Of a DNA stretch of 64,000 nucleotides, positions 5,892-45,281 are shown one piece after another. The stretch is from Podarcis cretensis (Eukaryota): positions 48,422,001-48,486,000 of the forward strand of contig OX638161.1 of assembly GCA_951804945.1 (NCBI GenBank), given 5' to 3'. The notes under the pieces are model-generated. The model was not told the origin of the DNA. It worked only from the letters and a program-made list of their open reading frames with translations, and did not search any database. The translations under genes were made by a program, and so were the position numbers. Within the stretch, counting starts at the first letter, position 1; each line of letters starts with the position of its first letter.

Positions 5892-6444
5892 TCTCTCCAA
5901 CTTCATTTCTTCACATTATTGCAGCCCGATTCTCCTTAAAGCATGTTCAGGAATTGCTCACTATCTTCCACAAAGTCAATCAATCAATCTTTATGACGGT
6001 CCAGAGACCCAACAAATCATTACAAATCAATCTTCCACAAAGTGCTTGGTATGCTCTGAGTGAAAGAGGGCTTGCCCACACTACTCTTATTCCTGTGTTT
6101 TCTTTTCTCCCATCATTTTCTCCGGGAAAAGCCATGGTTTAACACTGAATAGGAACAAAAATAAACCAAGTTTTCTGTGGATTGACATTTGTTCTGGTTC
6201 AGCAGAACCAGGGAAAAGCAACTGAACAAAAGAACATCCTGGACCCACAGGACAAAGGGAAGTGTTGATGAGCCCAGAGTTTCCATGTTGCTTGTGCATT
6301 CTAAGAGGGACACATGTCCACAGGTGTAAAGAGCTCTGCAAATGTCAAACAGTGTCGAAGAGACAGATTTTTGCAAAGTCCAGATGTGCCTCTAGTCATA
6401 CATTGTCCAAAGTCTCTGTTGGTGCATTTATCTTGATAGGTATG

Positions 6445-6854
6445 TGTCAGGGAACTGCCATCGGAAGGACAGGTGGTGAGAAGGCTTCAGCAGAATAGGA
6501 GAGCCTCTTCTTCAGGAGAAGAGGGAACCAGTAGGGGGAGTGCGGGAGCTCCAAAGGAAAGGGAGTCGGAGGGGAGGCTCTGGGATACTTCCAGTGAGAA
6601 CAGCGAGGAGGTATCAGAACAGCCCATAAGGACTCCCACCCCCCGCCGGAAGCTGTCACGCAGGGAATCCAGGAGGCGCATGTCTGTGAAACAGCTCTTA
6701 TGTTGGAAACGTTTCCGCAAACGCCCACTGTCAGATTCTACCAGCGACTGAGGGAGCCATGCTCAAGGGCTCTTCTCAAAGCAGGGTTTCACTACACAGA
6801 GTGAGCTCTGAGGGATCCAGCTTTAACGCACAAGCTGCTCATTATCCCACCACA
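6445..6854 (+). repeat. 5' LTR
   Basis: TGTCAGGG...CCACCACA; no differences from 11545-11954 seen by eye. Confidence 0.96.
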
Positions 6855-6899
6855 GCAATCTGACAGTCCCTGAAAGCAGCTTGTGCAAAGAGAGGCATC

Positions 6900-7913
6900 A
6901 TGAGCAACCCAGCCGGAGGCGGAGATGGGGGAGCAGCTGCAGCCGGTCCTAGCCTGGAAGAAAGGTACAGGATGTTGGAGGTACAGTTAGCTCTGCAAAC
7001 GGCGAGGCTGGAGGAGAGGAGGGCTCATGATGCAGAAAAGGGGAAAGCCGCCCAGCTCTCGAGGAAAGTGCCAGGACTGGTGCAGAAGTTTGGGGGTGAT
7101 CCCAGGAATTATCAAGCCTTCAGGACAGAGATGCAATATGCCCTCAATCTGCAGTTTGATGATTTTCCTGATGAGGATTCGAGGGTTGGTTTTGTGATTG
7201 GGCATCTCGAAGGCACAGCCCGAGATTGGGTGAGACCACTAATGGCAGCCAATAATGAAGCCCTAAGGGACACAAGGAAGTTTTTTCGCGCCATGGATCT
7301 GATGTTTTCCAGCGAGATTGAGCAGGGAGTGGCGCGCAGGCAGTTAATGGCGTGTAAACAAGGGAACCGATCTGTCCGTGAGTACTGGACTGAGTTCACC
7401 ATGTTGATCCATAAATTAGGATGGGATTTGTCAGCGGAACCGATACAAATGCTGTTCGAAGAAGGACTATCTTCGGCAGTGAAAGACGAACTTTCCCGGG
7501 GGCCCAGGGCGGAGTCTATGGACCTTCTGACTAAATCAGCGCTGGCCATAGGCTCACGCCAGGAGGCCAGAGCCTTGGAGAAGCGGGAAGGGAAAGGGGA
7601 GCGTTGGAGGGATTTCCGCATTCCAGAGATGCCAGAGCAGCCTTCTCTGCCAGCAGAGCCGATGGAAATCGGAACAGCGCGCGCGCGCGCAATTTCAAAC
7701 CCCAGTGAAGGGAGGAAGAAGGAGGGGAAAGGCGCCAAGAAATGTTTTCTCTGCCAACAGCCAGGTCATTTTGCCAGAGTTTGTCCGCAAAGAAAGGAAT
7801 GGCAAGGAATGGCGGGAGCTGTTGGGGAGGAGGGAGAAGGAGCTAAGGAGCAAGTAAAAGCCAACGCCTGGCTGCCACCGACGGGGCACAGCAGCCAGGC
7901 CAAGGAACAGTAA
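6900..7913 (+). CDS. gag: Gag polyprotein (retrotransposon capsid plus CCHC zinc knuckle)
   Basis: 337-aa ORF with KFGGDP, KQGNRSVREY capsid motif, EPMEIG and CFLCQQPGHFARVC knuckle. Confidence 0.93.
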   Translation: MSNPAGGGDGGAAAAGPSLEERYRMLEVQLALQTARLEERRAHDAEKGKAAQLSRKVPGLVQKFGGDPRNYQAFRTEMQYALNLQFDDFPDEDSRVGFVIGHLEGTARDWVRPLMAANNEALRDTRKFFRAMDLMFSSEIEQGVARRQLMACKQGNRSVREYWTEFTMLIHKLGWDLSAEPIQMLFEEGLSSAVKDELSRGPRAESMDLLTKSALAIGSRQEARALEKREGKGERWRDFRIPEMPEQPSLPAEPMEIGTARARAISNPSEGRKKEGKGAKKCFLCQQPGHFARVCPQRKEWQGMAGAVGEEGEGAKEQVKANAWLPPTGHSSQAKEQ

Positions 7914-10900
7914 ATGTGCCCACGCCAGAACCCCCAAGACCAGCTCTTGTAATAGAGGTATTGCTGGAGCTGGCAAACGGACACCCACTAAAAGTGAAGG
8001 CGCTATTAGACTCAGGCAGCTCCTGCAACTTTATGAGTAAGGAGTTTGCAGCCGCCCATCAGATACAAACCATTCCTTTAAAAAATCCCCTGCAGGTGAC
8101 CACGATTGATGGGAGGGCGCTGTTGGGGGGAGAAGTAGACCAGCAGACGGTCCCCATGACAATGAGGGTGGCAAGACACACGGAACGGATAGCGTTTAAT
8201 ATAGCCACGTTGGGAGGAGCGCCCATCATTTTGGGGATGAGCTGGCTAGCGCTGCATGATCCGCTTGTGGGATGGCATCAGAGAGTGGTTTCCTTTGGGT
8301 CAGCACATTGTATGGGACACTGCACAGAAAAAGGGGGCCAAGCAGGCACTCAGGCCACGTTAGCAAAGATAGAAGCAATGGAACAAGGTAGGGTACCACG
8401 ACAATATGCAGATTTTGCCGACGTCTTCAGCGAAAGGGAAGCAGATAAACTACCCCCGCACAGAGCCTTTGACTGCCAAATCAACTTACTTCCAGGAGCG
8501 CAATTGCCAGTGGGCAAGGTGTATGCAATGTCTGACAGAGAGATGCAGGAGCTAAGGGAGTTTATTGACAAAAACCTCAAGCGTGGGTTCATCAGGGAGT
8601 CACGAGCGGTGGGGGGTAGCCCAGTGTTCTTTGTAGACAAAAAAAACTCGGACAAACCGAGATTAATTGTGGATTTCAGGGCCCTAAACGCAGTGTCCGA
8701 ACCCGTGACCTTCCCTATGCCCAGAATCGATGACATTTTGACCCGGGTGAGAAAAGGGAAGATTTTTACCAAGCTGGACCTGAGGGGGGCGTATAACTTG
8801 ATACGTATGAGAAAGGGAGATGAGTGGAAAACCACTATGTTCACCCCCTTGGGGGCATTTGAGTACTGCGTTATGCCTTTCGGCCTCCAGGCGGGTTCCG
8901 CAGTATTTCAATCATTTATTAATCACGTACTAGGACCATTGCTGTACAAGAACTGCGCTGCGTTCTTGGACGATGTGCTGGTGTACTCAGAGGATGAAGA
9001 GCAGCATGTGCGAGATGTAAGAGAAGTACTGAGCAAACTGCAAGAAAACCAGCTGTGGGTGAAACTGGAGAAGTGTCAGTTTCACGCCAGGGAGGTGGAA
9101 TTCCTTGGGTACCGGTTGTCGGACAAGGGGCTGGCCATGGATCCTAGCAAGGTGCAAGCAGTGCTGGAATGGAGGCCACCGAAAACTAAGAAAGATGTGC
9201 AGAGGTTTTTGGGGTTCGGAAACTTCTATCGGAAGTTCATCAAGAACTTCGCCCATTTAACAGCCCCCATCACGGATTGTCTCAGCAGTAAGAAGAAATT
9301 TGTCTGGACGGAAGAAGCGCAGCGAGCTTTCGAAAGTTTAAAGAGGGCGTTTGCTTCGGAAGAACAACTTTTACACGTGGATCTGCAGCAGCCGATGAGG
9401 GTGGAAACCGACGCGTCTGACAGAGCGGTGGGGGCCGTGCTTCTGCAGCCAGGAGCGAATACGTCGGAATGGAAGCCGTGTGCCTTCTTCTCGAGGAAAT
9501 TGAACAAGTCTGAGAGGAATTATACAGTGTACGACAGAGAATTACTCGCTGTCCACGAAGCGTTCAAGAGATGGAGACACCTGTTGATTGGAGCGCAACA
9601 CAAGGTTCAAGTACGGACAGACCACAAAAATCTAGAATACTGGAGAACAGCCCGAGTGTTGAACCAGAGACAAGTAAGATGGGCGCAAGAGTTCTCCAAG
9701 TTCAATTTTGAGATTCGCTACGTGCCAGGGGCTGAGAATGTCAGGGCGGACGCTCTCTCCAGAAAACCTGAGTACTTGGAGGGGGAAGGAGGGGCGGAAG
9801 AAAGACATATCATCTCAGAGGACCACTGGGTTTGTGGGGCGGCATTGGTGGGGCAAAGAGAACTGGCAGAGGGTATTGAAAACGATGAATATGCCCAAGA
9901 GAAACTTAGGGAACTCAGGGAGACAGGTGAAAACGCAGGGGGGTTTGAGGAAAAGAACGGAAAACTATATTACAAAGGGGCGCTCTACATACCAGGTGGG
10001 GAACTAAGAGGGCGAGTGCTTAAGCAGTTGCATGACAGCCCCACGGCCGGGCACTTCGGGCAGCACAAAACCATGTGGTTGGTTACCAGGGAGTTTTGGT
10101 GGCCCAAGGTGCGGGAGGACGTGCGGGAGTATGTCAGGGGATGCGACAGGTGCCAAAGAGCAAAGGGAGAGAGGTTGGCGCCAGCGGGGTTATTGGAACC
10201 CTTACCCACCCCAGAAAGGCCATGGGAGATGGTATCCATAGACTTCATGACCGATCTACCGAGATCCAAAGGGAAAACCGCGGTCATGGTGGTGGTAGAT
10301 CTACTAACTAAGATGTGCCACTTTATAGCTTGTTCACATGCAGTGACAGCGGAAGAAACCGCAAGGTTGTTTGTGGAGCACATTTTTAGGTTGCATGGCG
10401 CCCCCTTGAGGGTTTTGAGCGACAGAGGAAAACAATTTACTTCTAGGTTCTGGAGGAAACTAATGAGCATGTTGCATGTGGAGGTAAGTTTTTCCACCGC
10501 CAGGCACCCAGAAACAAATGGGCAAGCAGAAAGGGCAAACGGGGTTTTGCAACAATATCTGAGGTGTTATGTAAAGGACAGAGAAACTGATTGGGTGGAC
10601 TGGTTACCTCTGGCAGAATTTGCCTACAACAACGCGGAGAACGCGTCCACAGGGATGAGTCCCTTTTTAGCCAATTATGGGTGTCATCCTCGGGCGTTTC
10701 CAGGAGAGGGCGGGGAAAGGTGGAGTGTACCTGCAGCGGAAAATTTTGTTGAAGAGATGGAAGCGATCCACCGTCAGCTCCAACTCAACTTAGAGAAAGC
10801 CAAAGAAGAATATAAGAAGCAAGCTGACAGAAATAGGAGGGAAGGCGAAACCATAAGGGTGGGTAACCGGGTGTGGCTATCCACCCAAGGACTGCCGTTC

Positions 10901-11851
10901 AAGGGAGGGTGTAAGAAATTGAGACCCAAACGGTTGGGACCCTTTGAGGTCATACAGCAGGTCAACCCAGTAGCATTCAAACTCCGATTGCCCAGTCACA
11001 TGAAATTGCACCCAGTATTTCACAGGTCATTACTGTCGCCCTACAGAGAGGGGTGTGAGTGGGGGGAACGTGAGAGGGAGGTCACCCGAACACCCGTCAT
11101 AGAAGAGAGAGAACGCAACATGGATGTGGCAGGGATCATTGATTCCAGGTGGAAGGGGAATCAGGTGGAATACTTGGTAGAATGGGAGGGGGAGGAAGAG
11201 TCAGAAAACGCATGGGTACCGGCAGAGGAAGTCAAGGACGAGATTTTAATAGAAACGTTTCATCGGCGTTTCCCAAGTAAACCACAACCAGTGGCAAGGT
11301 TTAGGAGGGAACACTTCGGGACTACAGATGAGGAAGGGGAATTTGAAGGGTTCCCAGAGTCGGAAGTGGAGGTGGAAACAGATTCCGACGAAGGAGAGGA
11401 AGAGGGGGAAAGAGGCGGTAGGCCGTGGTTAGAAGTGTTTGAATCCTCGGAGGATGAGGGGAGTTCCTTCCAGGGATTTCCGTCCTCGCCGCCAGTAGGA
11501 GAAGAGGCGGGAGGGGGTGAAGGGGGCCCTGGGGGGGAGGTGGATGTCAGGGAACTGCCATCGGAAGGACAGGTGGTGAGAAGGCTTCAGCAGAATAGGA
11601 GAGCCTCTTCTTCAGGAGAAGAGGGAACCAGTAGGGGGAGTGCGGGAGCTCCAAAGGAAAGGGAGTCGGAGGGGAGGCTCTGGGATACTTCCAGTGAGAA
11701 CAGCGAGGAGGTATCAGAACAGCCCATAAGGACTCCCACCCCCCGCCGGAAGCTGTCACGCAGGGAATCCAGGAGGCGCATGTCTGTGAAACAGCTCTTA
11801 TGTTGGAAACGTTTCCGCAAACGCCCACTGTCAGATTCTACCAGCGACTGA
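7847..11851 (+). CDS. pol: Pol polyprotein (protease, RT, RNase H, integrase, chromodomain, acidic tail) in the -1 frame relative to gag
   Basis: LLDSGS protease, FLDD RT, TDAS RNase H, HHCC/DDE integrase, GPF motif, YLVEWEG chromodomain. The frame is open from 7847 (after TAA 7844-7846) and runs into the 3' LTR. Confidence 0.95.
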   Translation, partial: GASKSQRLAATDGAQQPGQGTVNVPTPEPPRPALVIEVLLELANGHPLKVKALLDSGSSCNFMSKEFAAAHQIQTIPLKNPLQVTTIDGRALLGGEVDQQTVPMTMRVARHTERIAFNIATLGGAPIILGMSWLALHDPLVGWHQRVVSFGSAHCMGHCTEKGGQAGTQATLAKIEAMEQGRVPRQYADFADVFSEREADKLPPHRAFDCQINLLPGAQLPVGKVYAMSDREMQELREFIDKNLKRGFIRESRAVGGSPVFFVDKKNSDKPRLIVDFRALNAVSEPVTFPMPRIDDILTRVRKGKIFTKLDLRGAYNLIRMRKGDEWKTTMFTPLGAFEYCVMPFGLQAGSAVFQSFINHVLGPLLYKNCAAFLDDVLVYSEDEEQHVRDVREVLSKLQENQLWVKLEKCQFHAREVEFLGYRLSDKGLAMDPSKVQAVLEWRPPKTKKDVQRFLGFGNFYRKFIKNFAHLTAPITDCLSSKKKFVWTEEAQRAFESLKRAFASEEQLLHVDLQQPMRVETDASDRAVGAVLLQPGANTSEWKPCAFFSRKLNKSERNYTVYDRELLAVHEAFKRWRHLLIGAQHKVQVRTDHKNLEYWRTARVLNQRQVRWAQEFSKFNFEIRYVPGAENVRADALSRKPEYLEGEGGAEERHIISEDHWVCGAALVGQRELAEGIENDEYAQEKLRELRETGENAGGFEEKNGKLYYKGALYIPGGELRGRVLKQLHDSPTAGHFGQHKTMWLVTREFWWPKVREDVREYVRGCDRCQRAKGERLAPAGLLEPLPTPERPWEMVSIDFMTDLPRSKGKTAVMVVVDLLTKMCHFIACSHAVTAEETARLFVEHIFRLHGAPLRVLSDRGKQFTSRFWRKLMSMLHVEVSFSTARHPETNGQAERANGVLQQYLRCYVKDRETDWVDWLPLAEFAYNNAENASTGMSPFLANYGCHPRAFPGEGGERWSVPAAENFVEEMEAIHRQLQLNLEKAKEEYKKQADRNRREGETIRVGNRVWLSTQGLPFKGGCKKLRPKRLGPFEVIQQVNPVAFKLRLPSHMKLHPVFHRSLLSPYREGCEWGEREREVTRTPVIEERERNMDVAGIIDSRWKGNQVEYLVEWEGEEESENAWVPAEEVKDEILIETFHRRFPSKPQPVARFRREHFGTTDEEGEFEGFPESEVEVETDSDEGEEEGERGGRPWLEVFESSEDEGSSFQGFPSSPPVGEEAGGGEGGPGGEVDVRELPSEGQVVRRLQQNRRASSSGEEGTSRGSAGAPKERESEGRLWDTSSENSEEVSEQPIRTPTPRRKLSRRESRRRMSVKQLLCWKRFRKRPLSDSTSD

Positions 11852-11954
11852 GGGAGCCATGCTCAAGGGCTCTTCTCAAAGCAGGGTTTCACTACACAGA
11901 GTGAGCTCTGAGGGATCCAGCTTTAACGCACAAGCTGCTCATTATCCCACCACA
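11545..11954 (+). repeat. 3' LTR
   Basis: Direct repeat of 6445-6854, preceded by the purine-rich tract GGGGGGGAGGTGGA. Confidence 0.96.
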
Positions 11955-11956
11955 GT

Positions 11957-11964
11957 ATGCAAAT
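11957..11964 (+). promoter_or_regulatory. Ig octamer ATGCAAAT of the VH4 promoter, overlapping the retrotransposon TSD
   Basis: Canonical octamer about 105 nt upstream of the leader ATG at 12068, the same position as in the paralogous VH3 and VH5 promoters. Confidence 0.9.
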
Positions 11965-12067
11965 TTTCAGCGAAAGCTTCCCCTTTAAAGCAGTCACACA
12001 GCCTCCCTTCCTCTGCATATTTGGGACCAAATTTTGCTCAACACTCTCACAGGATTAGACAAGTAAA

Positions 12068-12506
12068 ATGATAGTTTTGCTTCAACTAGTTTTCCTTTCG
12101 GTAGCTTTTGGAGGTAAATCCATCCTTTCAGTTAAAGATGGTTGGGGTACTCTGGGAGTTAATAACATGCAGCAGAATTCTAAAAATGCCCTTCTTTCTA
12201 GGTGTCCAATCAGAGGTCCAGCTGGTGGAGTCTGGAGGAGATGTGAAAAAGCCTGGAGACTCCCTCCACCTCTCCTGTCGAGCCTCTGGATTCAACTTTG
12301 GGGACTCTGGCATGCACTGGATGAGACAGGCTCCTGGGAAGGGCCTGGAATGGGTGGCCTACATAAACCACAATTCAGCTACAATTTACTACTTGGATAA
12401 AGTGAAGGGAATATTCACCATCTCCAGGGACAATTCCAACAGCCTCCTCTATCTGCAAATGAACAGCCTTAAACCCGAGGACACGGCTGTGTATTACTGT
12501 GCAAGA
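12068..12506 (+). CDS. IGHV: IGHV segment VH4 (clan III-like); coding intact, promoter split by the LTR element
   Basis: Leader 12068-12113, open V exon 12202-12506 (EVQLVESGG...YYCAR). RSS: CACAGTC 12507-12513, 23 nt, ACAAAAACC 12537-12545. Confidence 0.92.
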
Positions 12507-13273
12507 CACAGTCAGAGGAAGTGAATCTGAAGTCAGACAAAAACCCTCCTTTAATCAAAACAGAGAAGTTGCATTCCCTCCAACATTCCACATGAAAATA
12601 GGGACATTCTATTAGCTGCCAGAGACCAAAGAAAGCTGTTAAAATAATTTAGACAGATTGTCTTCCCATTCAAACGGAGACAGCCAGCTAGTCATGCAGC
12701 TGTACACCTGGAGCTTTCCCTAGGCAAACTATAATCATTTATTAGTGTTATTATTATGAATTTATCAGTTCCTTAATCTTGCCCAGGGCAATCCAATGAA
12801 ACAACCAAAGAAACAATAAACCCCACATAGATATGTTAAAACCAAGAGGAAAGAAGAATACATTAAAAACAATTCACCCACTTGTAAGAGACCACAAATA
12901 GTTATAGGCCAAAGGCCTGGTTATAGAGGAAAGTTTTTGCTTGGTGCCTACAGATGTATAATGATGGTTCCAGGCAATCCTCACTGGGGAGAGCATTCCA
13001 CAAACAGGGATACATTTCAGAAATGGCTCCTTCTCATTTTGACACCCTCCAGACCTCTTGTGGAGGAGGACCATAAAAAACGTCCTCAAATTATGATTTC
13101 AGGTTTTTAAAATGTGATTCAGTGCTCTTTTTCATTTACTCCAAGGGCCATCAAACATTCTATACTGGGCACTACACACACACACCACAACCAGCTACAT
13201 GCCACAACTTGATCTATTGGCTACACTAAAGAGCATCCTTGAAAACAAAATTTCCATTGAGGAGAGAGGATAC

Positions 13274-14771: not shown

Positions 14772-15212
14772 ATGATAGTTTTCCTTCAACTGGTTTTCTT
14801 TTCAGCAGCTTTTGAAGGTAAATTCATTCTTCCAGTTAAAGAAAGCTGGTACATTCTAGGTGTTCATAACATGGATCTTGTCTCTCAATATGCCTTTCTT
14901 TCTAGGTGTCCAATCGGAGGTCCAGCTGGTTGAGACTGGGGGAGATGCATAAAGGCCTGGGGAGTCCCTCCACCTCTCCTGCCGAGCCTCCGGGTTCAAC
15001 TTTGGGAATGCTTACATGGCATGGGTGAGACAGGCTCCTGGAAAGGGCCTGGAATGGGTAGCCTACATATATCCTCAATCTGATTACATTTACTACTTGG
15101 ATAAAGTCAAGGGACGATTCACCATCTCCAGGGATAATTCCAACAGTCTCCTCTATCTGCAAATGAACAACCTGAAACCTGAGGACACCGCTGTATATTA
15201 CTGTGCAAGAGA
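14772..15212 (+). pseudogene. IGHV: IGHV VH5 (clan III-like) pseudogene with a single nonsense codon
   Basis: Leader 14772-14817, V exon 14906-15212 with TAA at 14950-14952 in FR1. Perfect RSS CACAGTG-23-ACAAAAACC at 15213-15251. Confidence 0.92.
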
Positions 15213-16042: not shown

Positions 16043-17379
16043 GTTGTTGTTGTTTAGTCGTTTAGTCGTGTCCGACTCTTCGTGACCCCATGGACCAGAG
16101 AACGCCAGGCACTCCTGTCCTCCACTGCCCCCCGCAGCTTGGTCAGACTCATGCTGGTAACCTCGAAAACACTATCCAACCATCTCGTCCTCTGTCGCCC
16201 CCTTCTCCTTGTGCCCTCCATCTTTCCCAACATCAGGGTCTTCTCCAGGGAGTCTTCTCTTCTCATGAGGTGGCCAAAGTACTGGAGCCTCAGCTTCACA
16301 ATCTGTCCTTCCAGTGAGCACTCAGGGCTGATTTCCTTCAGAATGGAGAGGTTTGATCTTCTTGCAGTCCATGGGACTCTCAAGAGTCTCCTCCAGCACC
16401 ATAATTCAAAAGCATCAATTCTTTGGCGATCAGCCTTCTTTATGGTCCAGCTCTCACTTCCATACATCACTACTGGGAAAACCATAGCTTTAACTATACG
16501 GACCTTTGTTGGCAAGGTGATGTCTCTACTTCTCAAGATGCTGTCTAGGCCTGTCATTGCCCTTCTCCTAAGAAGCAGGTGTCTTTTAATTTCGTGGCTG
16601 CTGTCACCATCTGCAGTGATCATGGAGCCCAAGAAAGTAAAATCTCTCACTGCCTCCATTTCTTCCCCTTCTATTTGCCAGGAGGTGATGGGACCAGTAG
16701 CCATGATCTTCGTTTTTTTGATGTTGAGCTTCAGACCATATTTTGCACTCTCCTCTTTCACCCTCAATAAAAGGTTCTTTAATTCCTCCTCACTTTCTGC
16801 CATCAAGGTTGTGTCATCTGCATATCTGAGGTTGTTGATATTTCTTCCAGCAATCTTAATTCCGGCTAGGGATTCATCCAGCCCAGCCTTTCACATGATG
16901 AATTCTGCATATAAGTTAAATAAGCAGGGAGACAAAATGCAGCCTTGTCGTACTCCTTTCCCAATTTTGAACCAGTCAGTTGTTCCATATCCAGTTCTAA
17001 CTGTAGCTTCTTGTCCCACATAGAGATTTCTCAGGAGACAGATGAGGTGATCAGGCACTCCCATTTCTTTAAGAACTTGCCATAGTTTGCCATGGTCGAC
17101 ACAGTCAAAGGCTTTTGCATAGTCAATGAAGCAGAAGTAAATGTCTTTCTGGAACTCTCTAGCTTTCTCCATAATCCAGCGCATGTTTGCAATTTGGTCT
17201 CTGGTTCCTCTGCCTCTTCTAAATCCAGCTTGCACTTCTGGGAGTTCTCGGTCCACATACTGCTTGAGCCTTCCTTGTAGAATTTTAAGCATAACCTTGC
17301 TAGCGTGAGAAATTAGTGCAATTGTGCGATAGTTGGAGCATTCTTTGGCACTGCCCTTCTTTGGGATTGGGATGTAGAC
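16043..17379 (-). mobile_element. 5'-truncated BovB (RTE-clade) LINE with RT coding region
   Basis: RT motifs (GVRQGCILSP, LRYADD) and BovB-type C-terminus (...HGVTKSRTRLND), (CAA)n tail, 10-bp TSD TGCCTTGAAT (16033-16042 and 17380-17389), one in-frame TGA at 16891-16893. Confidence 0.93.
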
Positions 17380-19231
17380 TGCCTTGAATACTAGTAGATA
17401 TTTCCAAAAGCTTTTGGGACTTGGGGCAGGCAAACAAATAATAAGGGTTTCCAAGATCCCAGTGGTCCATAATTGGTACTTTGGCATTTGGCTCCTGAGT
17501 GGCATTCCTCCCCCCACGCCCACCCCATAGTCAATATGTTAGTTCATTTTCCAGATCTGCTAATAAGTCTGCACTGTTCCTTGTGGCACAAAGAACAGCA
17601 GGTGGCATGAAGTTCCCTGTAGGAATTGAACACTAGGAAGGAACAGTGTTTCACAGTGATACTCAAAAATGTTTAAGCTGTCCCCTGATCTAGGATAGTG
17701 GGAGGATGGCATGACCTCAAGTTTAGTCACCACTAAAAGCCCTCCTCAGAAAAACAGAGAGATACTGCGTGGAACACAAGCTTGACATCGGTGCTGTTTC
17801 TACATTCTTTGTAAGAGAATTGTATGAAATCCAACCCAGAATCAACTGTGAAGGCCAGAGCTTTTGCCAATGTAATGTAGGAATCATTTTCTAGCCCATG
17901 GTCTGCCAGCAGGTTCTTAACAGGTTTGCAGCCTGGCAAACAAACCCTGGAGGCCAGCATGGGAAAAAATTCCCAAGCATGAGGCTTTAAGTTAAGGGCA
18001 AGTCAGACCTGCATTCTCCAATTCCTGGAATGGCTTATTACCAATCTGTGAGGCACAGCCCTTAAGAGCAGACCAAGAGCAGGACCATCAGTTAGGAGAA
18101 CTTTCAGGAGCAGATAGTAAAAAGTTTGAGCTATGCCACTAGAAATCAGATGCCTAGAAATGTAATGGTGTCAGATTCCTACTGCCTGCCTTCCTGCCTG
18201 CCTGCCTGTGTATTGGGCTCAGCAAGTCCCTATATTATTCCCCTTTGACACCTGGCAAAGAAAGGAAGACCAAATGGGAGCCACTATTTTAATTCATTCT
18301 GAATCCCCATAAGGTAATCTCACAGTAGAACAACATGACACAGTCGACACTGATTATTATTGTGATTCTCAGTGATATAAAAGAATCCTCACTTATTCCC
18401 AGAATGCATGTTGTATTAATAGACAGTGATCTGTACACTTTTATTGATTCATAGCTGACTTTATTATTTGAATCCAAGTAGCTTTAAAGCCTCCAAGACC
18501 TTTACTGAACAATAAGTCAACACTTGCGCAACTGCTATACAATCATAGGACTCAGCTACATTAGTGAAGAAACAGCAATTTGAATGCACTATAACATGCA
18601 ACAACAGATGGCGGCAGAGAGCAGGAATTTTATTTCCATAGAGACTTTTTTTCTATAGTTTTAATGATCCAATTTATGACTTATTTACGGTGTTTCTTTT
18701 CTTGTGTTTAGATCCACCCATAGACTCACATGTCATTTTTAACATCATTAAGCAACTTAACTTATTATTATTATTAATCATTTATGTATACTCCGCCCAC
18801 CTGGAATAGTATTATTAATAATACAAAAGCAATAAAATATCAAATATTAAAAATTTTCTAAATAAGGCTGCCTTCAGATACCTGGGTGTTTTGTTTTGAC
18901 AAGAGGACCCAAAAGATTATTTGCCCCTGAGCTGCAGCTGGCTCAGTTCATATGCAAATCTGTCACTGAGTTCAACAAGCAAGGGAGCCATTTTCTCATG
19001 TTGACATTTGTCCTCTTTTTCCAAAACAGGTTCTCTTTTTCTGGGCTAAAATTTCTTTTGGGGTGGATTTTTGATATTGCCAAAATGTATCTTGCTATAC
19101 CTTCTGGATAAGACATAGGTATATCTGGTGGCTGCCCCTCACCTACTCATCAAACCAAAATTAATACTTTAGGAATCTCTGTACCTTGCTATCACAGTCA
19201 TAGAGTAGAAGAAAACAACAAGGCAGAATCT

Positions 19232-20299
19232 TCAAAACCTTCTCCGAATTAGTTGTTCTCTGTTGTTCAGCTGGGGCTTGAGCACAATGATGTAGCATTT
19301 AGGGGTGAAGATGCAGCCCAGTAACCCAGCACTGGAGGACAAGATGGAGAAGATCTCCACAGCCACCATGTATTCCCCTCTTGTGCTCAGGTAGGTTGGA
19401 ACAAAAGACAACCAAACACTGCAAAAGACTAACATGCTGAAGGTGATGAACTTGGCTTCATTAAAACTATCTGGTAACTTGCGGGCTAGAAATGCCACAG
19501 TGAAGCTGGAAATGGCCAAGAAGCCCATGAAACCCAAGACACAGTAAAACATGGCGACTGACCCTTCATTACATTGCACAAGGATTTCTCCAGTTACTGA
19601 GTGCATGTCTAAATCAGGGAAAGCGGGAGAGGTTGCCAACCACAAGGTACAAATACTTGCTTGTATGAGGGAACAGGAAAGAACCACAGACTGTCCCTGT
19701 CTTTTCCCCATCCACTTCCTCATGCTGGATCCTGGCTTTGTGGCCATGAAAGCTATCACTACAGTGGTGGTTTTGGCCAATACACAAGAAACAGCAACTG
19801 AGAAGATGATACCAAAAACTGTTTGTCGGAGAAGGCAGGTCACTTTTCCAGGTTTGCCAAGAAATAGGAAGGAAGATAGGAAGCAGAGCTGGAGGGAAAT
19901 GAGGAGGGTATAGGTGAGGCCTCGGTTGTTGGCTTTGACAATGGGTGTATCCCTGTGCTTAATGAAAATTGTTAACACCAAGACTGCAATAATGGAAAGA
20001 AAAACAGCAGCGAAGGCTAAAGTGATTCCTAAAGGTTCTTCATAAGAAAGAAAGGTTAAAACTTTTGGCATACATTCATCTTTGTCCTTACTTGGAAATT
20101 TCTCTTCTGGGCATGTGAAACAGTCAGTCATATCTAAAAAAAAAAGTAAATTTATCATTCAGTATTATCTGTTACATATGGACTCTTCTCCACACTACCT
20201 CTCATACATCAGTTATAAGTCATATAACTTTTGCTTGAAGGTTCCAGCCATATCTAAAAATTGAAAATTTCTCATTTCAGTATCTATTACCTATGTGGG

Positions 20300-20348
<49 letters not shown>

Positions 20349-21223
20349 TCCAATGCTATTCTCTGGACTCAATCCTGAAGATAGGAATGGCACCACTGTA
20401 ATAAAGTGCATGTAATTCTCACTCCCCAGAGAGCTGATCCAGGAGGATACCATGGTTGATGGTATCAAAAGCAGGTGAAAGATCCAGAAACAGGAGCAAG
20501 GTCACATTCCCCTTTCCTACTCTCAGCAGAGGTGATCCATCAGGGCAAACAAGGCTGACTCAGTTCCATTGCCAAGACTGAACCCAGAATAGAATGGCTA
20601 GAAAGTTTGGTTACCCTTGGAAGTAACTGGGAGGTACATTCCCTTCTGCCTTCTGCATACTGATGTTGATTTAGCTAATCAAATTTCCACTTGTGAATAG
20701 AAATCTTATATAACTTCTTCAATTTGCTTTGTGTGGTGGAAACATTGGGGTACTACATAACCTACCCATCTTATTGGAAATCTTCCCTTCTGGACAGGGA
20801 GTACAATCATAGCAGCAAAATTTCTCCCCTTCCTTCCTTTTCTTCTGGTTACCAGGATAGCAGTAGTCATTACACAAAGAAATGGGCATCACCTATCCAT
20901 AACCATGAAAGGCGTTACACAGGGAAATTCAGTTAGATAGACAGAGATATACCGTACATCTGTTGTTTATCTTGACTGATACCTCAGATCTTTTAAGCAC
21001 CTAGCTGTACTTAACTGGGCAGACAAGGAAACACCTCTGGGAATACCAATAGTTGAACCAGCAGAGAATTCACAAAGATGAACCACAAAGGCATTTGAAT
21101 ATAGTGAGTTAGTCACTATTGTTTCAATTTCCTCATGTGCATACAGAAAAGATGGCAAAGACGATGAGCTAATATGAAACCCTTACTATTATGTGTGTGT
21201 GTGTGTCATTCATATATATCTAG

Positions 21224-21284
<61 letters not shown>

Positions 21285-24200
21285 GGGGGTACCTTGGTTT
21301 ATGAACATAATCCATTCCGGAAGTCTGTTCTTAAACCAAGGCATGCTTTCCCTAATGAGGCCTCCCACTGCTGGTGCCCTTCCACAGTTCAGAGTCCATT
21401 CTTAGACCTAGGTAAAGTTCTCAAACCAAGACACTATTTCCAGTTTTGCGGAGTTTGTAAACCAAATTGTTCTTAAACCGGACTGTTCTTAAACCGAGGT
21501 ACCACTTTATATAAAAAGAAAAAATGAAAATGAACCAAGAAATCCCTTCTCCAAGTAATTTTTGTGCTGGTGTAAAGTTATCTCTGTCACCAGAGCTATT
21601 TCAAAAATTCCAGACATAGTTGTCACATCAATCTTTGTCGAAAAATATAAAGTGTTCTATCTGCATTATTTTTCTCATGACGTGATTGGCCAGAATACTG
21701 CCTGGAAAAGCAGCAAGGCAATTCTAGGCTATAAGGACATTGAATGCAGCACCTTCCAGCTCCTCTGTACCACAATTCATACCTGGTTGAAACCACTGTG
21801 CCAAACAATTAGATCTTCATGAATGATGAGTTCTTCTCCTTCAGGAGCCTCTGGGTCAATCCAACCAATTTTCTCTCTCTGGAAAGAGTTGTTTGGAAAT
21901 ATGACCATATTTATGATGTCAAAGCCGCCTCCCATTTCCCATTTGTCATTAAAGGAAATGGTTTCCCCAGCTGAGTTGTTAAATGAAATCTTGTGAAGAA
22001 CGTGATAGAGCTAAGATAGAAGGAATACAAAAAAGAATGTGGCATGTAAACAAATTGAAGAGTTCATCTTATGTCAGGTAGTGCCTTCAAAAGTTGTTGG
22101 ACTACAATTCTCATCAAGCATTCAGCTTGACTAAATGTCAGGGATTATGTGAATTCATCCTGCATTGCATATTCAGACTCCAGTGACTTCAACAACAACC
22201 ACAACAAGAATCTATAAAATACATTCAACCAATACAATGTCCAACTCCATATCCTCAGTGATTAATGCAGGAGAAAGCTGAATATAACATCACTTTGTAC
22301 TCATTTGTTTATTGAAATAAAAATACTTCTTTGTAGGGACATTACCTGCCAGGGCTGAACATCTTGAAGATCAGTATTGAAACCTTTCTCATTGGCTTTC
22401 TGCTTGGATCGAGACAAGCCCATAACATGCAAAGAATGAGCCACAGCATAAACACCATTATAGATACTATAACTGTGGCCAGTCATGAGGAACTCAAAGT
22501 GTGGCCCAGAAAGACTCTCCAGCCTCTCCTCCCCAGTACATATTTCATCAACATCCATTGTGGCATTGGGGTTAGGAACTAGACAGTCAAAGGCTTGCTC
22601 CCAAAAGTTCTTCAGAAAACCATCTATCTGGGGCCCATAAGGTTTTATGGTCTGAATAAATTCTGTAAACCCTGCAATCTCTTTGGAGTGGATTGTAAAG
22701 GAAATTGCACCTTGGAACATCTGAAGACCCCAGCCCTTTTGAATGCCAGTCAATATGAAATCTATCTGGGTTGTCGTAATCCACACCTTTCTGAGTGATG
22801 TATTCTCCTTCATTCCGGTGTGTCGTATAAATATAATAGTTCTCAGCCATGATATAGTCAATGATTCTCCATATATAATAAAGGTAGTCACTTTATTATT
22901 TGTGTATTGTATATAAACCTCTGTGGCTATATTACCAAGTTCCTCCAAGCTATCCCAGTGGGCTATTTGTGGTATTCTTTCTGTGAATGCTGAACAGATC
23001 GCATACTGGGAAAATAATGGCTCCAGCGTCTGTAAGAAATGTTTGCCACTGCTATTATCAACTGGAAGAAGCCCAACCCATGTCCATTTGAAATATTGGA
23101 GTAACCGGATTATACCTATATACTGCTGAGTTTCATTTGGGACGAGGCGAAAAAAGGATGGCTCTTGAGTGATATGATTCTCTTGTGGGGCAAATGAGCC
23201 ATATGTGAGCTGAAAGAAAATGGACAGATATTGCAAGGAAAAGTTAGGAGTGACTATGTTCCTGATTATACAACTACTATATCTTGAAACAGTCTGGAAA
23301 CCTAGAGTTACAGATAACACTTGAAGTCGAATTTCCCAAGGATATAGAATGTATTGTTATTATAATAAATTAATTATTTGATTTATTGGTTGCTTTGTTA
23401 CGAAGGTAACTCAAAATGCATTCCATTATATAAACAAACATGTTCATTAAAACCACCATAAAAGAAAAACAAAGATAAAAGGCAACATTGGTGGTGGGGT
23501 TTTAAAAAGAAGAAAGCAGGATTAAAACACCCCACCCACTAATGGAAGCCATAGATAATTAAGAGTCAAAGGATTTGCATAAATAAATGTTAAATAACAA
23601 TTGAAGAATAAATACAATATAATGGGTAAATTTAGAAGGATTTTTCTTTTTCTTTTGGTCAGTCCCTGCTTTTGTCAACTCCCTCCTTTTGAACTAGAAA
23701 ATAAAGCTTAGCATAAGAAAGAAGAGCCTGAATCACTCTCACACAAATTTAAATATACAGAGAGAATTCCTACCTGTGGAACCTTATAGGAACCTATAAT
23801 ATCTGCCATGAGGTTAGAGGTATCAGATCCAAGTCCCCCAATGATAGCCATGAGTTTTTTCTGTCTGTCACACTGGTAGTTGGGAACAAATCTATGTGAT
23901 TTGAAGAGCACCTCCAAAGTGGTACGATAAGTCATCCTTGCATCGTAGTAGCTATCATAGATGTGGAATCCAAGTGTGACATTAGGTAGCATCTTAGGAT
24001 TCTCGTTGATTTCGTTCACAGCAAATGCCAAGGCAAGGATGTGTTGGTAGAATTTTGTCACCATTCTGCATATAGAGGTAGAATTCGGTCATCCCTTTCT
24101 ATATTAAGGATGATTACTGCTGTCATGTCATATTGAATTTTGTGTTAGAGTGACATGGATTCTAACAAAAACATTTTGGTTCCACCAGGAAGGCAGCTGC

Positions 24201-30733: not shown

Positions 30734-33718
30734 ATGTTTCTGTTTATGTTCCTGCTTCTGCTGCCTCACACAGTGTACAAAGTGGCTAGTATGGTGTGCC
30801 CCACAAATGAACCCATCCCTGTTCCCCATGAGTGGCACCAGCCAGGAGGCCTCATCATTGGTGGAATTGCTTCTCAGATCATTTACCATTCTCTGGAAAT
30901 TGACTTCAAAGAACCGCCTTCTCAGAAACTGTTTCAAGATCCAGAGTAGGGAATTGCAATTTTCTCCCACCCCTCTACTCGTTTTGTCATTGGCAAGATC
31001 ACAAAGAAATGTTTAAGTAGGACACACCCACACATCCACACACAATTACAACAATTTTTTTCATGCTGATAAGTTTTTAGGGAAAGCAAAATAATTTAAA
31101 TGAAGACTTGAAGGAATCTGCACAAGCAACTACAAAAATATATCTGTGAATAATTTTGTTTTTGTTTGCTTCTTATTTTTTATAAAAAAAATAAAAATAA
31201 AGCCCAGTGATGAATGTGGTCAGGTATATTTTGAGGGTGTCAAATTCATTTTAAATACCTGATAATAGCAAAACAATAATACTAATAATAATACTACTAC
31301 TACTAATAATAATAATAAGCCCAGTCCCATTTTATTGATCAGCACACAATGTTCTTGAGGCTAGAGGTGATTCCTCTTCTCGTAAGACACTTCATTTAAG
31401 TTGTCATTTCTTATTTCTTATTTCTTTGGTTTTTATTTCTACTTTTCAAATATATACATGTCATTAGTTTTACAATCAATTTAACATTTCAAGATTTGAC
31501 TTCCACCTCCCCCTTTCTGCAGTTCCTTAAATTTATTTTTAAAATATCTTTTTCATATCCAGGTTCATTTAACTTGCTCATTTAATTATCTACTGTAAAT
31601 ATATACGCGTATAAAACTGCAGGTTATTACAATAATCCTGCTAATGTTTATATCTGTTTACAATTTATCTGTAAATATTCAATAAACCATTTCCATTCTT
31701 TTATTTTTAAAAAATTGGTATCTTGATTTCTTATTCTTCAGGTAAGTTTCGCCATTTCTGCACATTCCATAAGTCTTTGTATCCATTCTTCCTTTGCTGG
31801 GACTTCTGCTTCTTTCCACTTTGGGGCAAGTAACATTCTTGCTGCTGCAGTAGCTTACATAAATAATTTTCTATACAATTTAGAAAGTTCTGACCCTATA
31901 ATTCCCAAAAGAAATTGGGCAATTAGGTTGTAATTCCTGTGAAACTCAAATCCACATCTAGGTTTCCACATTTTTCTTTATTTATTCTGACAGTTGGCAG
32001 AACAAAGTCCTATGCAGAGAGAAATAAAAGGATATGCTTATTATAACTGAAGTAAGAAACACAGAGAAATTTCTGGTATGGTGATATAACAACTTCAGGC
32101 ATTGTAATAAATGCCTTCTCTTTGCAGAATGATAACGAAATTTTACCAGCACATCCTTTCTTTGGCATTTGCTGTGGATGAGATCAACAAGAACCCGACA
32201 CTCTTGCCCAATGTCACACTTGGCTTCCACATCTATGACAGCTACTATAATGCAATGGCAACTTATCGTACCACCTTAGACCTCCTCTTCAAGTCACATA
32301 AATTTGTTCCCAATTACATATGTGACACAAGGAAAAATGTCATAGCTGTCATTGGTGGTCTTGGCTCTGATATTTCTTCCTTAATGGCAGACATTTTAGG
32401 TTTCTATAAGATTCCACAGGTAGGAATTCTCTCTGTCTCTGTCTGTCTGTCTGTCTGTCTATGCATGTATGTTTTAAAGCTCTGTTTGGGGACTGTATAG
32501 CAAGATGAATTGAAGTGATTTATGGGCCCTCACCCGTTTACTTAAAACACAACAAACCAAGATTTTTCAGGGCTGTCATTCTGCACTATATTCTATATCT
32601 CTGCACTATATTCCTTATTTAATTCTAGGTTTCTTTAGATTTAAGCCCTAAAGATATCCAAGAACAGTGATTTCCTGTTTAAGTTGCAAAAAAAGAGAGC
32701 TGGAAATCTAGGCCCCATTATTTCCTGTAAATTAGCTGCCGAGAGAACAGTGCTAGCAGCAGCAGTAATATTTTTGTTGCGAGTCTCTACAGCATACTGA
32801 GCAACACATTTAGGATGAGAACACACAACAACAAGAAGAAAAAACAACAAGAAGAAGCAGATATGCACTCATTAAAGTGGGATGGAAGAAATATGAGAAG
32901 TGAACAGAGAGAGGAAATGTAGAGAATGACAAAGTTGCAATTAGACTTGAAAGCAAAATAATGCCATTTGAGGCAAATTATCAGAAGTGTCTTGGGCTTT
33001 CTGAAGGACTCATGAGGCATATTCTCTAAAACAGAGTTGAATTTTGACTCTGAACATCCCCAAGCTTCCATGATATGCTGCCCACCACTTAAAGGAAATA
33101 ATCTGTAACAGTTCAAGATGCAGTATTTTTTTAAAAATCTCCTCTGCTTCAATAAAAACTTCCAGAGCACTTCAGAACTCTGCAGGCCTGTAAAAGCTAG
33201 ACCACAAATATCCAACCAGTGTTACAAAATATACAAGCCAGAAAACATATCAACCACCTTACCTCTTAACTTGTTTAAGGTAAGGAGGAGACAGCCCCCT
33301 GCTTCAACTGCTCCATAAGAGTTTATAAAGCAAATCCCATTTCCTCCCGTAACACCTAGATCTATTTTTGTTTAATGTGGCATGCTAATCCAATGTGCAG
33401 GGTCTCCTGTATATGGAATTTCCATGCCATATGGCTAAAAATAGGGGGAGAGAATTATAACCTTTTTTTTTTTCAATTCTACATTATAGTGGAAGGGTGA
33501 ACATAGACCTTCACATCAAACACAGTGGCTTGGAACAGATCAAAATGGAGAGAGCAACGGAAAACTCAGAAACATTGTTCATATTTATTTATTTGTTTGT
33601 TTTAAGCCCAGTTACAGATATTAGGAGATTTTGGAGCACACACACACACACACACAGTTGTAGTAAATTACACTCTTCTGAGCCCGGCTTCGGCTGGGGA
33701 GGGCGGGATATAAATAAA

Positions 33719-33763
<45 letters not shown>

Positions 33764-40715: not shown

Positions 40716-41162
40716 ATGCCAGTATTCATTGCACTGGCTGCTTCCTCCTTTGGTGTGTTGGGATTTATAGTCTATTGCGCCACTAGAACTGTATCCCAGA
40801 TGATAACCAGCGGCTTCTGTTTCTATTTATATTATTTCTTCTCCCCCCATTCCAGTTCCAGATGTACTTTCCCAGATAGTTCTGACTCAGTCATCAGAAC
40901 CAGTCATGAAAAAACCTGGAGAATTCCATAAATGAACCTGTAGCACCTCTGGATTTGAGATTTACAGCAACACTATGTGGCAGGTCAGACAGGAACCTGG
41001 TGAAGGTCTGGAATTCATTATTCAGCATAATAATGTTCAGAGCAAATATGACACCACTATAGTCTGAGGGCGATTCACAGCCTCAAAAAGCAGCCCCAAC
41101 TTCTATCTGCAGATGAACAAAATGGAAGAAGGAAATACAGCCATGTATTACTGTGCAAGAGA
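40716..41162 (+). pseudogene. IGHV: IGHV pseudogene of a distinct family (QIVLTQSSEPVMKKPGE...GRFTASKS)
   Basis: Short putative leader 40716-40752, V exon 40862-41162 with two TGA stops and YYCAR; RSS heptamer CACAGTG 41163-41169. Confidence 0.85.
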
Positions 41163-44148: not shown

Positions 44149-45281
44149 CACAGTGACACAGGGTAATTGGGACTCCGAACAAAAAGAAGAAACTGACTCT
44201 GAATGAAGAAAGTTGGTTCTATTCAATCACAATGCACAAATTACTTTGCAAACACAATGCAAAAGAATTCAATGATAAAAATGAAGTACCGAGTCATTTT
44301 TTAGGTAAAGGTTCTCATGTTCTTTTCTGTATGTATGCAGGTAATCATGATGGTGGACGCGATTCCCATGTCAGTCTATTCCAGTTGTATGTTTTTGTGA
44401 AACCAAGCAAATATCTTGGTTTTGCTTCCTCAGCAAAGAGGAAACTGCATGAGATGCTTCCATACTGGAACCAATATTTTCTGTGAAAATTCTTTACAGT
44501 GGCACTTGCAGACTAGGCAAGGGCCAGGACACACATATCCAGCCCCTCCCAGTTGTGATGGTTGTGTAGATGTATCTGCAGTTTCTTAATTGTGCAGGAG
44601 TTCTGATGGGAAAACTACCATTCTCAATACCATGCCTCTTCTTAGATTTGAAGAGGGATAGATGACTTTAGCACTTAGCAAGATATATGTATTAATGTAA
44701 CATGAATCTCAAAGCTCTTTTCCAGAACTCAGTTCATCCCTTGTTACCGCACAAACATCTCTTGGTAAAGCCAGGCCTCAGAAACTCCTGCTGTTACTGC
44801 TTCTCCTCAAAGGATGGCAGCAGAGTATAAAGAGAATACATTTGACCATTAGCCAGGAGGGAAATGAAACTGACATCTGAAAGTATTAGTTTGTGGTTTC
44901 AAATGTAAAGCTGACTAATTCTACAACCGTTTACCCCCAAACCAGTGTTGTGTAATCTCTCAGGAGTTTGACTCCCCAAGAGATTTCCCTATGATTTATT
45001 CTTGAAACCTGACACAGCCAGACTCCTCACTTTCCGGCCTAAGGAGTGAACAAAAAAATGCTCAGCTTGCCTTGACTTAGGTGTTCATGCTTGTTTATTA
45101 ATTACATAGCCAGACTGTGTTCAGTGGAGAAAACCTGGTGGGATCCAAGCAGATTCTGCACATGGAACCCAAGTAAAAGTCTTGTCATTCTATATGGTCA
45201 AGTTACCATAATGGAAGGAATGTGAATTGAGAGAGCCTGCAAATTAGCAGAAAGAACTCAGAAATTAAGAATTGAACAAGG

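Follow-up and report, generated by a model that had tools for sequence, protein, structure and literature searches.

A chromovirus within a VH promoter

The window, that is, the whole stretch of 64,000 nucleotides of Podarcis cretensis DNA that was analysed, contains an intact immunoglobulin VH gene, VH4, whose promoter is interrupted by a Ty3/gypsy chromovirus of 5,510 bp (positions are those of the window, and all features discussed lie on the + strand). VH4 (12068-12545) has an open frame, with a leader (12068-12113) and a V exon (12202-12506) joined through a GT-AG intron, and a recombination signal sequence (RSS) made of CACAGTC, 23 nt and ACAAAAACC. Its promoter holds an intact octamer, ATGCAAAT (11957-11964), and, 19 nt past it, a TATA-like TTTAAA (11984-11989) common to two neighbouring VH promoters. 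A study on human genes names octamer and TATA as the two elements of VH promoters, describes an octamer-19 bp-TATA spacing for VH1 genes and reports the upstream heptamer as missing from most human VH families (PMC2212390). Octamer, TATA-like box, leader, intron, open V exon and 23-spacer RSS together suggest, at the sequence level, a functional Ig VH gene. The two neighbouring VH promoters carry ATGTAAAT rather than a perfect octamer, and VH4 is the only VH gene with the perfect motif in the three-gene cluster.

A further promoter component of the VH clan, the conserved block TCTGTTGGTGCATTTAT, was recognized at 6415-6431 by alignment with four paralogous promoters. Its counterparts lie directly upstream of the octamer-like site in the two neighbours of VH4, two other VH genes align less closely, and the block itself is now 5.5 kb from VH4, as the preliminary description of this DNA had proposed.

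The element itself shows the organization of a Ty3/gypsy LTR retrotransposon: a left target site duplication (TSD), GTATG (6440-6444), a 5' LTR (6445-6854), a primer-binding site (PBS) 2 nt past it (6857-6867), a polypurine tract (11531-11544), a 3' LTR on the VH4 strand (11545-11954) and a right GTATG copy (11955-11959) that is continuous with native downstream sequence. The LTRs, with TG...CA ends and a start of TGTCAGG, measure 410 bp each and show 0 differences. The target, in which purines and pyrimidines alternate and flexible YR steps occur, extends over the octamer's first three bases, an overlap that had been described; the sense orientation of the 3' LTR likewise holds, while its distance from the VH4 ATG (12068), formerly put at about 114 nt, is corrected to 113 nt.

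Gag (6900-7913) comprises 337 aa, with Retrotrans_gag and Ty3 capsid matches and a CCHC knuckle. Pol (7847-11851) comprises 1334 aa in a frame that is shifted by -1 with respect to gag and overlaps it by 67 nt; no canonical slippery heptamer was found by eye. It runs from protease through reverse transcriptase, RNase H, integrase, an SH3 domain and a chromodomain to an acidic tail, and the catalytic motifs of the four enzymes are all present. The last ~101 codons of pol are encoded by the 3' LTR, which leaves no room for a third gene, and no env frame is present in the element. With identical LTRs and open gag and pol, the insertion is very recent and intact, in agreement with the young age first assigned to it.

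An exact 11-nt complement of the PBS is found at nt 283 of the LTR (6727-6737). By analogy with Tf1, this self-primer is predicted to mark the start of the element RNA, and the corresponding start in the 3' LTR would be at 11827. The self-primer/PBS duplex is paired in both the minimum-free-energy and the centroid folds. In the three-duplex "pretzel" fold the central duplex forms and the flanking duplexes are indistinct (z -1.47; 15 of 200 shuffles are equally stable). An octamer, a TATA and 19 poly(A)-type hexamers were searched for in the LTR sequence, and none is present.

Filled and empty alleles and the expected effect on VH4

The insertion, suspected from the outset to be possibly polymorphic, is so as judged from contig geometry, with filled and empty contigs in two samples and only empty contigs in two others. 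X1 and X4 both have filled junction contigs, which show 0 differences. In X1, the second-haplotype contig overshoots the site by 25 nt, exactly the prediction for a heterozygote; contigs of X3 and X5 extend 117 nt beyond the site without LTR, and that of X3 is identical to the window over 107 nt, as far as the site itself. Half-depth haplotypes join upstream at about double depth (34.7 versus 69.5). By our reading, two samples are filled/empty heterozygotes, and a third sample and a related species show the empty state alone, allele calls that follow from contig geometry, with junction contigs reaching 23 nt into the LTR, short of the 31-letter bridging rule. The filled allele looks to segregate beside an empty version of apparently the same haplotype.

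It is most improbable that an assembly artefact, or a paralogous VH promoter posing as the "empty" contigs, makes a fixed insertion appear polymorphic. Such a reading could draw on the empty contigs being known past the site by extent and not by their letters, and on the short reach of the junctions into the LTR; the clean TSD and identical junctions in two runs, the 107-nt identity of X3 to the exact site, the predicted overhang in X1 and the upstream merging of half-depth haplotypes all speak against it.

Regarding the consequences for the gene, VH4 would retain its core promoter (octamer, TATA-like box and leader) and could still rearrange and be expressed, at a level perhaps altered by loss of the upstream block or by silencing of the neighbouring LTR. 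The filled allele is probably near neutral, because the array has many VH genes. Six sequencing runs presumed to be RNA contained a fraction of 0.07-0.11 of the sequence words, which speaks neither for nor against expression.

The sense 3' LTR might instead act as a promoter or read-through source that raises germ-line transcription and usage of VH4, whatever the way in which the site was chosen, although we hold this to be improbable. The LTR lies on the same strand and is predicted to start transcripts at 11827, 241 nt before the VH ATG, it has no canonical poly(A) hexamer, so that read-through from the element is possible, and transcription of Amn-san elements has been reported from tissues of frogs (PMC4131045). 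However, the LTR has neither octamer nor TATA, and the first ATG past the predicted start, within the LTR, opens an upstream ORF of 70 codons (11859-12071) that is out of frame with VH4 and whose stop overlaps the VH4 ATG. This ORF is relevant only if transcripts start in the 3' LTR; such transcripts would be largely non-coding for VH, because the out-of-frame upstream ATG is met first. Additionally, young LTRs are commonly silenced.

This clean and intact copy, which segregates, shows that the family has moved very recently. A heterozygote, moreover, offers a natural allele-specific comparison for the clan-conserved upstream block in a reptile VH promoter, and bears as well on whether an adjacent young LTR shifts V usage.

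Choice of the insertion site

In our preferred reading, to which we assign a probability of about 0.7, this is a chance insertion by an active, high-copy lacertid family of Tf1/sushi-type (Amn-san-like) chromoviruses, with the octamer surviving through the geometry of the TSD; the landing in a VH promoter is probably fortuitous. The family would recently have made a new germ-line insertion through ordinary integrase action, giving the 5-bp duplication, with an element RNA that would start at LTR nt 283 and prime its own reverse transcription. The 5' edge of the VH octamer would have been hit by happenstance, with at most a weak local preference for a YR-rich target.

The preliminary description stressed that the TSD regenerates the octamer. 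An intact octamer is indeed present, but TSD geometry suffices to account for it and nothing special is indicated. Any motif that starts within the target stays whole downstream, and the octamer would therefore survive; because its first bases belong to the target, nothing interrupts the native sequence on the gene side, and no lucky restoration took place. Among the 12 possible overlaps between target and octamer, 10 leave an octamer whole, 5 of them on the gene side.

As to family size, three runs gave 400, 890 and 2,250 LTRs, that is, from hundreds to about 2,000 per haploid genome, rough depth ratios that give an order of magnitude only and not copy numbers. If one insertion falls anywhere in the 58,485 bases of host DNA in the window, its 5-bp target has a probability of 0.25% of overlapping one of the 12 VH-promoter octamers, so that the hit is individually rare, and the insertion has a probability of 5% of lying no more than 250 bp upstream of the ATG of a VH gene; these odds should be read as those of a single event (n=1) picked after the fact. 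Genome-wide, chance alone would place about 0.3-1.8 family copies on some ATGCAAAT, the background level of octamer overlap being ~0.1%, and 0.0002-0.005 per haploid genome on any V-promoter octamer, assuming 1.5 Gb and 100-300 V genes.

The fit of the target to RYRYR is weak because such 5-mers make up 2.4% of host positions. YR steps favour integrase access (PMC6673722); an RYRYR motif for Ty3 targets was looked for in two Ty3 papers and not found. A junction contig ending 23 nt into the LTR implies a further copy sharing the same 7 flanking bases; with 400-4,500 copies assumed, this has a probability of 0.016-0.16 for random targets and of 0.42-0.011 under a strict rule that the target ends in ATG, and does not discriminate between them. 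None of the 24 loose contig ends listed (285 further ones being unlisted) falls at an LTR terminus, where the flanks of other copies would show. Neither metagenome contigs nor viral contigs contained a 24-nt pattern from the LTR start (0 matches in each).

The overlap of the target with the first three octamer bases, in the only VH gene of the cluster with a perfect motif, together with the low chance per insertion (0.25%), could point to integration guided by the octamer, through tethering by a POU protein (Oct1, or a class V POU factor of the germ line or embryo) or through an integrase that itself reads the motif, with insertion at ATGCAAAT across the genome in both cases; a chromodomain without its aromatic cage would be free for such protein contacts. 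We regard this guidance as very unlikely: it rests on one case, chosen after the fact, and one of the two cuts falls in the ATGC half-site, which would be covered if a POU protein were bound. In the case of Ty3, the DNA is reported to be bent and cut next to the factor that tethers the element, at the start site. Among the titles and abstract openings surveyed, none reports POU tethering of a retrotransposon.

The chromodomain (11126-11269), at the integrase's C-terminus (Pfam Chromo, E 2.8e-8; HP1/CBX5 match, E 1e-5), bears on a second possibility. Group I chromodomains (MAGGY-like, H3K9me-reading) have an aromatic cage, Y24/W45/Y48 (PMC3350952), at whose positions the element has M, W and E, keeping the middle W alone. 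Of the 8 close Podarcis matches, P0004 is left out of the count; the other 7 have a recognizable chromodomain, and all 7 have lost the cage, as has the P. cretensis protein. Of the 112 further matches, 19 have no chromodomain match and are likewise left out; in 90 of the remaining 93 the cage is complete. Lineages of Anolis and Podarcis that keep it are represented by P0013 and P0016. The cage-less Podarcis proteins form one clade (support 1.0), and the central W is also lost in four relatives. Non-canonical chromodomains of this cage-less kind steer Ty3 and Tf1 to sites bound by transcription factors, as stated in the literature.

Given the clade-specific cage loss, a bias of the lacertid family towards promoters is a live possibility, and a general preference for promoters or open chromatin is a tentative alternative that we rate as unlikely. 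In that reading the chromodomain without its cage, or else the acidic tail at the C-terminus, would guide integration to promoter DNA that is poor in nucleosomes or bound by factors, as in Tf1, with the octamer incidental. The site, 113 nt upstream of the VH4 ATG, would suit it. Against it, there is one event, with a 5% chance of so promoter-proximal a position (within 250 bp); cage loss is equally explicable as plain decay, given the four relatives that also miss the central W, and the Tf1 bias depends on the fission-yeast factors Sap1 and Atf1. Furthermore, VH promoters belong to B cells, and one would not expect to find them open in germ cells or early embryos. Target choice differs within the group, Tf1 going to Pol II promoters, Tj1 to Pol III genes and the MAGGY chromodomain to H3K9me; with Tj1 at Pol III genes and Tf1 relying on Sap1 and Atf1, the target is therefore not a fixed trait of the group.

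A bolder proposal combines both ideas: the lacertid lineage might, like Ty3 and Tf1, have swapped its methyl-lysine-reading cage for a transcription-factor contact and be tethered by POU proteins to octamers in the germ line or early embryo, making Ig V promoters recurrent targets and segregating insertions a means of tuning V-gene usage. We consider this highly doubtful, and the titles and abstract openings surveyed mention no vertebrate LTR retrotransposon that is targeted by a transcription factor. Were targeting of octamers or promoters to prove true, factor tethering in the style of Tf1 and Ty3 would reach vertebrates and a mobile element would be tied to variation in the antibody repertoire; without targeting, the insertion is an ordinary polymorphic one. 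The clade-wide cage loss makes the target preference of a vertebrate chromovirus a question that an assembly could readily answer.

Relationship to known elements

The chance insertion favoured above is attributed to a family that shares with the Tf1/sushi group (sushi-ichi, Amn-san) the PR-RT-RH-IN order, SH3 domain, chromodomain, CCHC Gag, -1 pol frame, 11-nt self-primer, 5-bp TSD, TG...CA LTRs, length of about 5.5 kb and high copy number. The hallmark of the group is a self-primer, about 11 nt of the 5' LTR that can pair with the PBS, and a -1 frameshift between gag and pol is usual outside fission yeasts; the element departs from the group in the extension of pol into the 3' LTR and, by eye, shows no canonical slippery heptamer. 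The Sushi 5' motif TGTYANR (PMC3601003) fits its LTR start, whereas the Sushi LTR model carries AATAAA (PMC3601003), which its LTR does not, and vertebrate elements are described as group I with a classical chromodomain (PMC3350952), of whose three cage residues it has one.

Among solved structures, the best match was that of Ty3 from Saccharomyces cerevisiae (7q5b, E 7e-140), which also shares the 5-bp TSD and a vestigial chromodomain but targets Pol III start sites via TFIIIB. Reverse transcription of Ty3 is primed by a tRNA. Tf1 from Schizosaccharomyces pombe, to which the element had been related from the start, a link that self-primer and chromodomain bear out, resembles it in self-priming, in its non-canonical chromodomain and, as far as the present site goes, in a position just upstream of a Pol II gene; it differs in having a single ORF and no CCHC motif, and its promoter bias was shown on many insertions and depends on Sap1 and Atf1, as opposed to the one insertion considered here.

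The closest proteins are those of Podarcis muralis Gypsy elements, with 82-91% identity over the region searched. In a tree of 26 sequences, which did not include sushi-ichi, Amn-san or Tf1, the element groups with Podarcis (support 1.0), then with Anolis and Gekko and then with amphibian elements (0.7-0.99 at the deeper nodes). Three P. muralis elements, P0001-P0003, are on record under automatic names only (UniRef "Gypsy retrotransposon integrase-like protein 1"). They are 9-14% diverged (86-91% identity over Pol residues 200-1150), share with our element the FLDD motif of the reverse transcriptase, the cage-less chromodomain and the LTR-encoded tail, and form its sister group with a support of 1.0.

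Structure and identity of the inserted element

The element inserted in the VH4 promoter is bounded by two LTRs of 410 bp each (6445-6854 and 11545-11954), which start with TG and end with CA, are identical at 410/410 sites and are both flanked by the target site duplication GTATG (6440-6444 and 11955-11959); a polypurine tract lies directly before the 3' LTR. A motif search locates a perfect octamer ATGCAAAT at 11957-11964, and the neighbouring VH genes carry ATGTAAAT at this site. In an alignment with these neighbours, the left flank corresponds to the upstream part of their promoter and the right flank to the stretch from octamer to leader, which makes the two flanks halves of one promoter. 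Elsewhere in the 64-kb window, neither the LTR nor the internal region occurs again.

The element encodes (i) a gag of 337 aa, with capsid and CCHC matches, and (ii) a pol of 1334 aa, in the -1 frame with a 67-nt overlap with gag, comprising protease, reverse transcriptase, RNase H, integrase, SH3 and chromodomain. Both frames are open and the pol catalytic motifs are present, which, together with the LTR identity, bears out the preliminary description of an intact and very recent copy. The LTRs, GTATG copies and octamer also lie at the positions first given. The closest proteins among the 120 matches listed are Podarcis muralis Gypsy proteins (82-91% identity), which suggests a lacertid host, and in a 26-sequence tree the element clusters with them with a support of 1.0, other lizard and amphibian elements coming next.

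Starting 2 nt past the 5' LTR, a stretch of 11 nt is exactly complementary to LTR nt 283-293, and this duplex is paired in both predicted RNA structures; the RNA segment containing it is not unusually stable overall (z -1.47). Self-priming is described as a signature of the Tf1/sushi group in PMC7175516, 10.1101/2022.12.06.519325 and PMC4600332, and, judged by its sequence, the element is placed with that group by this signature. The predicted RNA start would accordingly lie at 6727 in the 5' LTR and at 11827 in the 3' LTR. The element also resembles Amn-san, the vertebrate lineage of chromoviruses present in fish, amphibians and reptiles, which exceeds 700 copies in the genome of a frog (PMC4131045); since the named reference elements lie outside the 26-sequence tree, this label expresses resemblance only. 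The pol frame crosses the polypurine tract and then about 101 codons of the 3' LTR (11545-11851), beyond the predicted RNA start; such an LTR-encoded tail is also found in the Podarcis elements P0001-P0003, and P0005 appears to extend likewise.

Age, polymorphism and family size

LTR identity bounds the age only loosely, to under 0.7-3.7 million years with assumed rates. Polymorphism was read from the contigs of 4 of the 23 listed public runs over 5900-7100. In organism A, run X1 (sample S1) and run X4 (sample S3) both yield a contig equal to 6360-6467 with zero differences. It covers the flank, the target and the first 23 nt of the LTR, which is less than the 31-letter bridging rule, and such contigs show presence, not absence. 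A second X1 contig fits 6360-6444 with four differences and continues with 25 non-LTR letters; three of its variant letters recur in X4, at a depth comparable to that of the filled contig (7.9 versus 9.8). With 31-letter words (k = 31 assumed), the empty-allele contig of a heterozygote must overrun the site by exactly 25 letters, because the empty allele there merges with the right junction of the filled allele. Run X3 (organism A, S2) gives a single contig equal to the window over 107 nt to 6444 and then 117 non-LTR letters, with no break after 25; the same 117-letter overhang occurs in X5 (organism B).

From this contig geometry, and not from the overhang letters, we take S1 and S3 to be filled/empty heterozygotes and both S2 and organism B to have the empty site, S1 being possibly the window's own source and S1 and S3 possibly one animal or kin. 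The empty stretch of S2 is identical to the filled haplotype over 6247-6444, whereas 4 differences in 85 sites and 5 in 145 separate other haplotypes from it; the insertion is therefore probably younger than the split between the segregating haplotypes. Overall, the insertion is real, recent, intact and polymorphic, polymorphism having been named as a possibility in the preliminary description, and an artefact or a fixed insertion is the most improbable of the readings considered here.

Depth ratios suggest, as an order of magnitude only, that each haploid genome holds between some hundreds and about two thousand LTRs of this family. At least one sister LTR subfamily is suggested by many contigs, in 4/4 runs, that match LTR nt 1-34 (6445-6478) and then diverge in a common manner; a variant polypurine tract is also present among the run contigs. 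Additionally, in five other organisms (B-F), 0.25-0.31 of the words of 11400-13200 are present, approximately the element's share of that segment, which suggests near-identical family members across related species (contigs were mapped for B only).

VH4 and its neighbourhood

VH4 is intact, with a leader, a GT-AG intron, an open V exon and an RSS with a 23-nt spacer. Its ATG (12068) is indeed close to the LTR, at 113 nt rather than the approximately 114 nt first given. The octamer and, 19 nt further on, the TATA-like TTTAAA are still in place. According to PMC2212390, a spacing of 19 is that of most human VH1 genes, and octamer and TATA are the named human VH promoter elements, an upstream heptamer being restricted to two families. 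The block displaced to 6415-6431 is conserved within the VH clan.

The LTR (11545-11954) contains neither an octamer nor a TATA box, and a scan for 19 poly(A)-type hexamers found none in it, which makes read-through possible. An RNA predicted from 11827 first meets an ATG at 11859, which opens 70 codons out of frame with a stop on the VH4 ATG; since this ATG comes first, LTR-started VH4 RNA would be mostly sterile. Germ-line transcription or usage of VH4 may possibly be changed, up or down, an LTR-driven increase being unlikely. A near-neutral effect would be more likely than a regulatory change, because the window by itself already contains no fewer than 14 VH-like genes.

The reading frame of the downstream neighbour VH5 (14772-15212) is interrupted by a stop in framework 1. 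Elsewhere in the array, the VH at about 57.8 kb (57500-57800) has a stop in framework 3, and those ending at about 41.1 kb (41100-41150) and 45.4 kb (45200-45420) look broken. The array also holds a head-to-head pair of class C GPCR genes with ANF_receptor and 7tm_3 exons (19235-24088, minus strand; 32111-38502, plus strand), which may be V2R-like; among 15 literature titles, no mention of V2R genes interspersed with VH genes was found. Reverse-transcriptase fragments of other retroelements, in 3 of the 58 frames scanned and at two places (16057-17538, minus strand; 61991-62389, plus strand), indicate that other insertions have accumulated here.

Octamer coincidence and target choice

The duplication had been taken to regenerate the octamer. 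The octamer, however, begins at target base 3 and all sequence from 11955 on is native, so that regeneration is no evidence but mere geometry: among 12 placements of a 5-bp target over an 8-mer, only 2 destroy the motif, while 5 spare it on the downstream side and 5 on the upstream side. Viewed from VH4, the element simply entered 2 bp before the octamer begins. The hit itself is uncommon, with a chance per insertion of 0.25% for a target overlapping a VH-promoter octamer and 5% for landing in the 250 bp that precede a VH ATG, counting 12 promoter octamers, hand-picked from 14 VH-like genes, in 58,485 host bases and omitting two genes with weaker octamer variants. Genome-wide, 0.3-1.8 family copies are expected to overlap some ATGCAAAT by chance, but only 0.0002-0.005 any V-promoter octamer, under assumed values for genome size and number of V genes. 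The latter figure is low, but the event was selected post hoc, in a very large scan that would have noted an element at any motif it recognised.

Perfect octamers number 20 in the window versus 4.8 expected; extra ones (50965, 52671-53404, 58667, 61870, 63720-63821) lie upstream of or between VH genes, several inside duplicated blocks with spacings of about 632 bp and 11 kb.

We consider a chance landing with a weak local preference to explain the octamer site, with a probability of roughly 70%. In this regard, GTATG is an alternating purine/pyrimidine run, but so are 5-mers at 2.4% of positions. Guidance of integration by the octamer through a POU protein is highly improbable: a bound POU protein would cover the octamer half-site inside which one cut falls, and VH promoters are not expected to be open in germ cells. 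Integration 2 bp upstream of the VH4 octamer would most likely reflect chance, with at most a weak preference for YR steps, which ease integrase access (PMC6673722). Our literature search, covering titles and the openings of abstracts and thin on subscription journals, found no report of POU tethering of a retrotransposon, of the target preference of any vertebrate Tf1/sushi element or of the VH4 insertion itself.

A general promoter bias is a doubtful explanation, though less so than octamer guidance. The element's chromodomain (11126-11269) aligns with HP1-type domains and keeps only the middle of the three aromatic cage residues (Y24/W45/Y48). The full cage is absent in 7/7 close Podarcis relatives with a chromodomain match (8/8 counting the window) and present in 90/93 other relatives with a match; 19 further relatives gave none. 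In our analysis, this loss across the lacertid clade raises the odds of some target bias; plain decay could also account for it, the central W too being gone in four relatives. Tf1 is directed to Pol II promoters via Sap1 and Atf1 (PMC7175516) and Tj1 to Pol III genes; in MAGGY, methylated H3K9 is recognised by the chromodomain (PMC3350952, PMC4600332). Target choice thus varies within the Tf1/sushi group, and kinship with Tf1 predicts little about the target. The clade-wide cage loss is the lead left by our analysis, non-canonical chromodomains being described as mediating the targeting of both Ty3 and Tf1 (10.1101/2021.07.27.453949).
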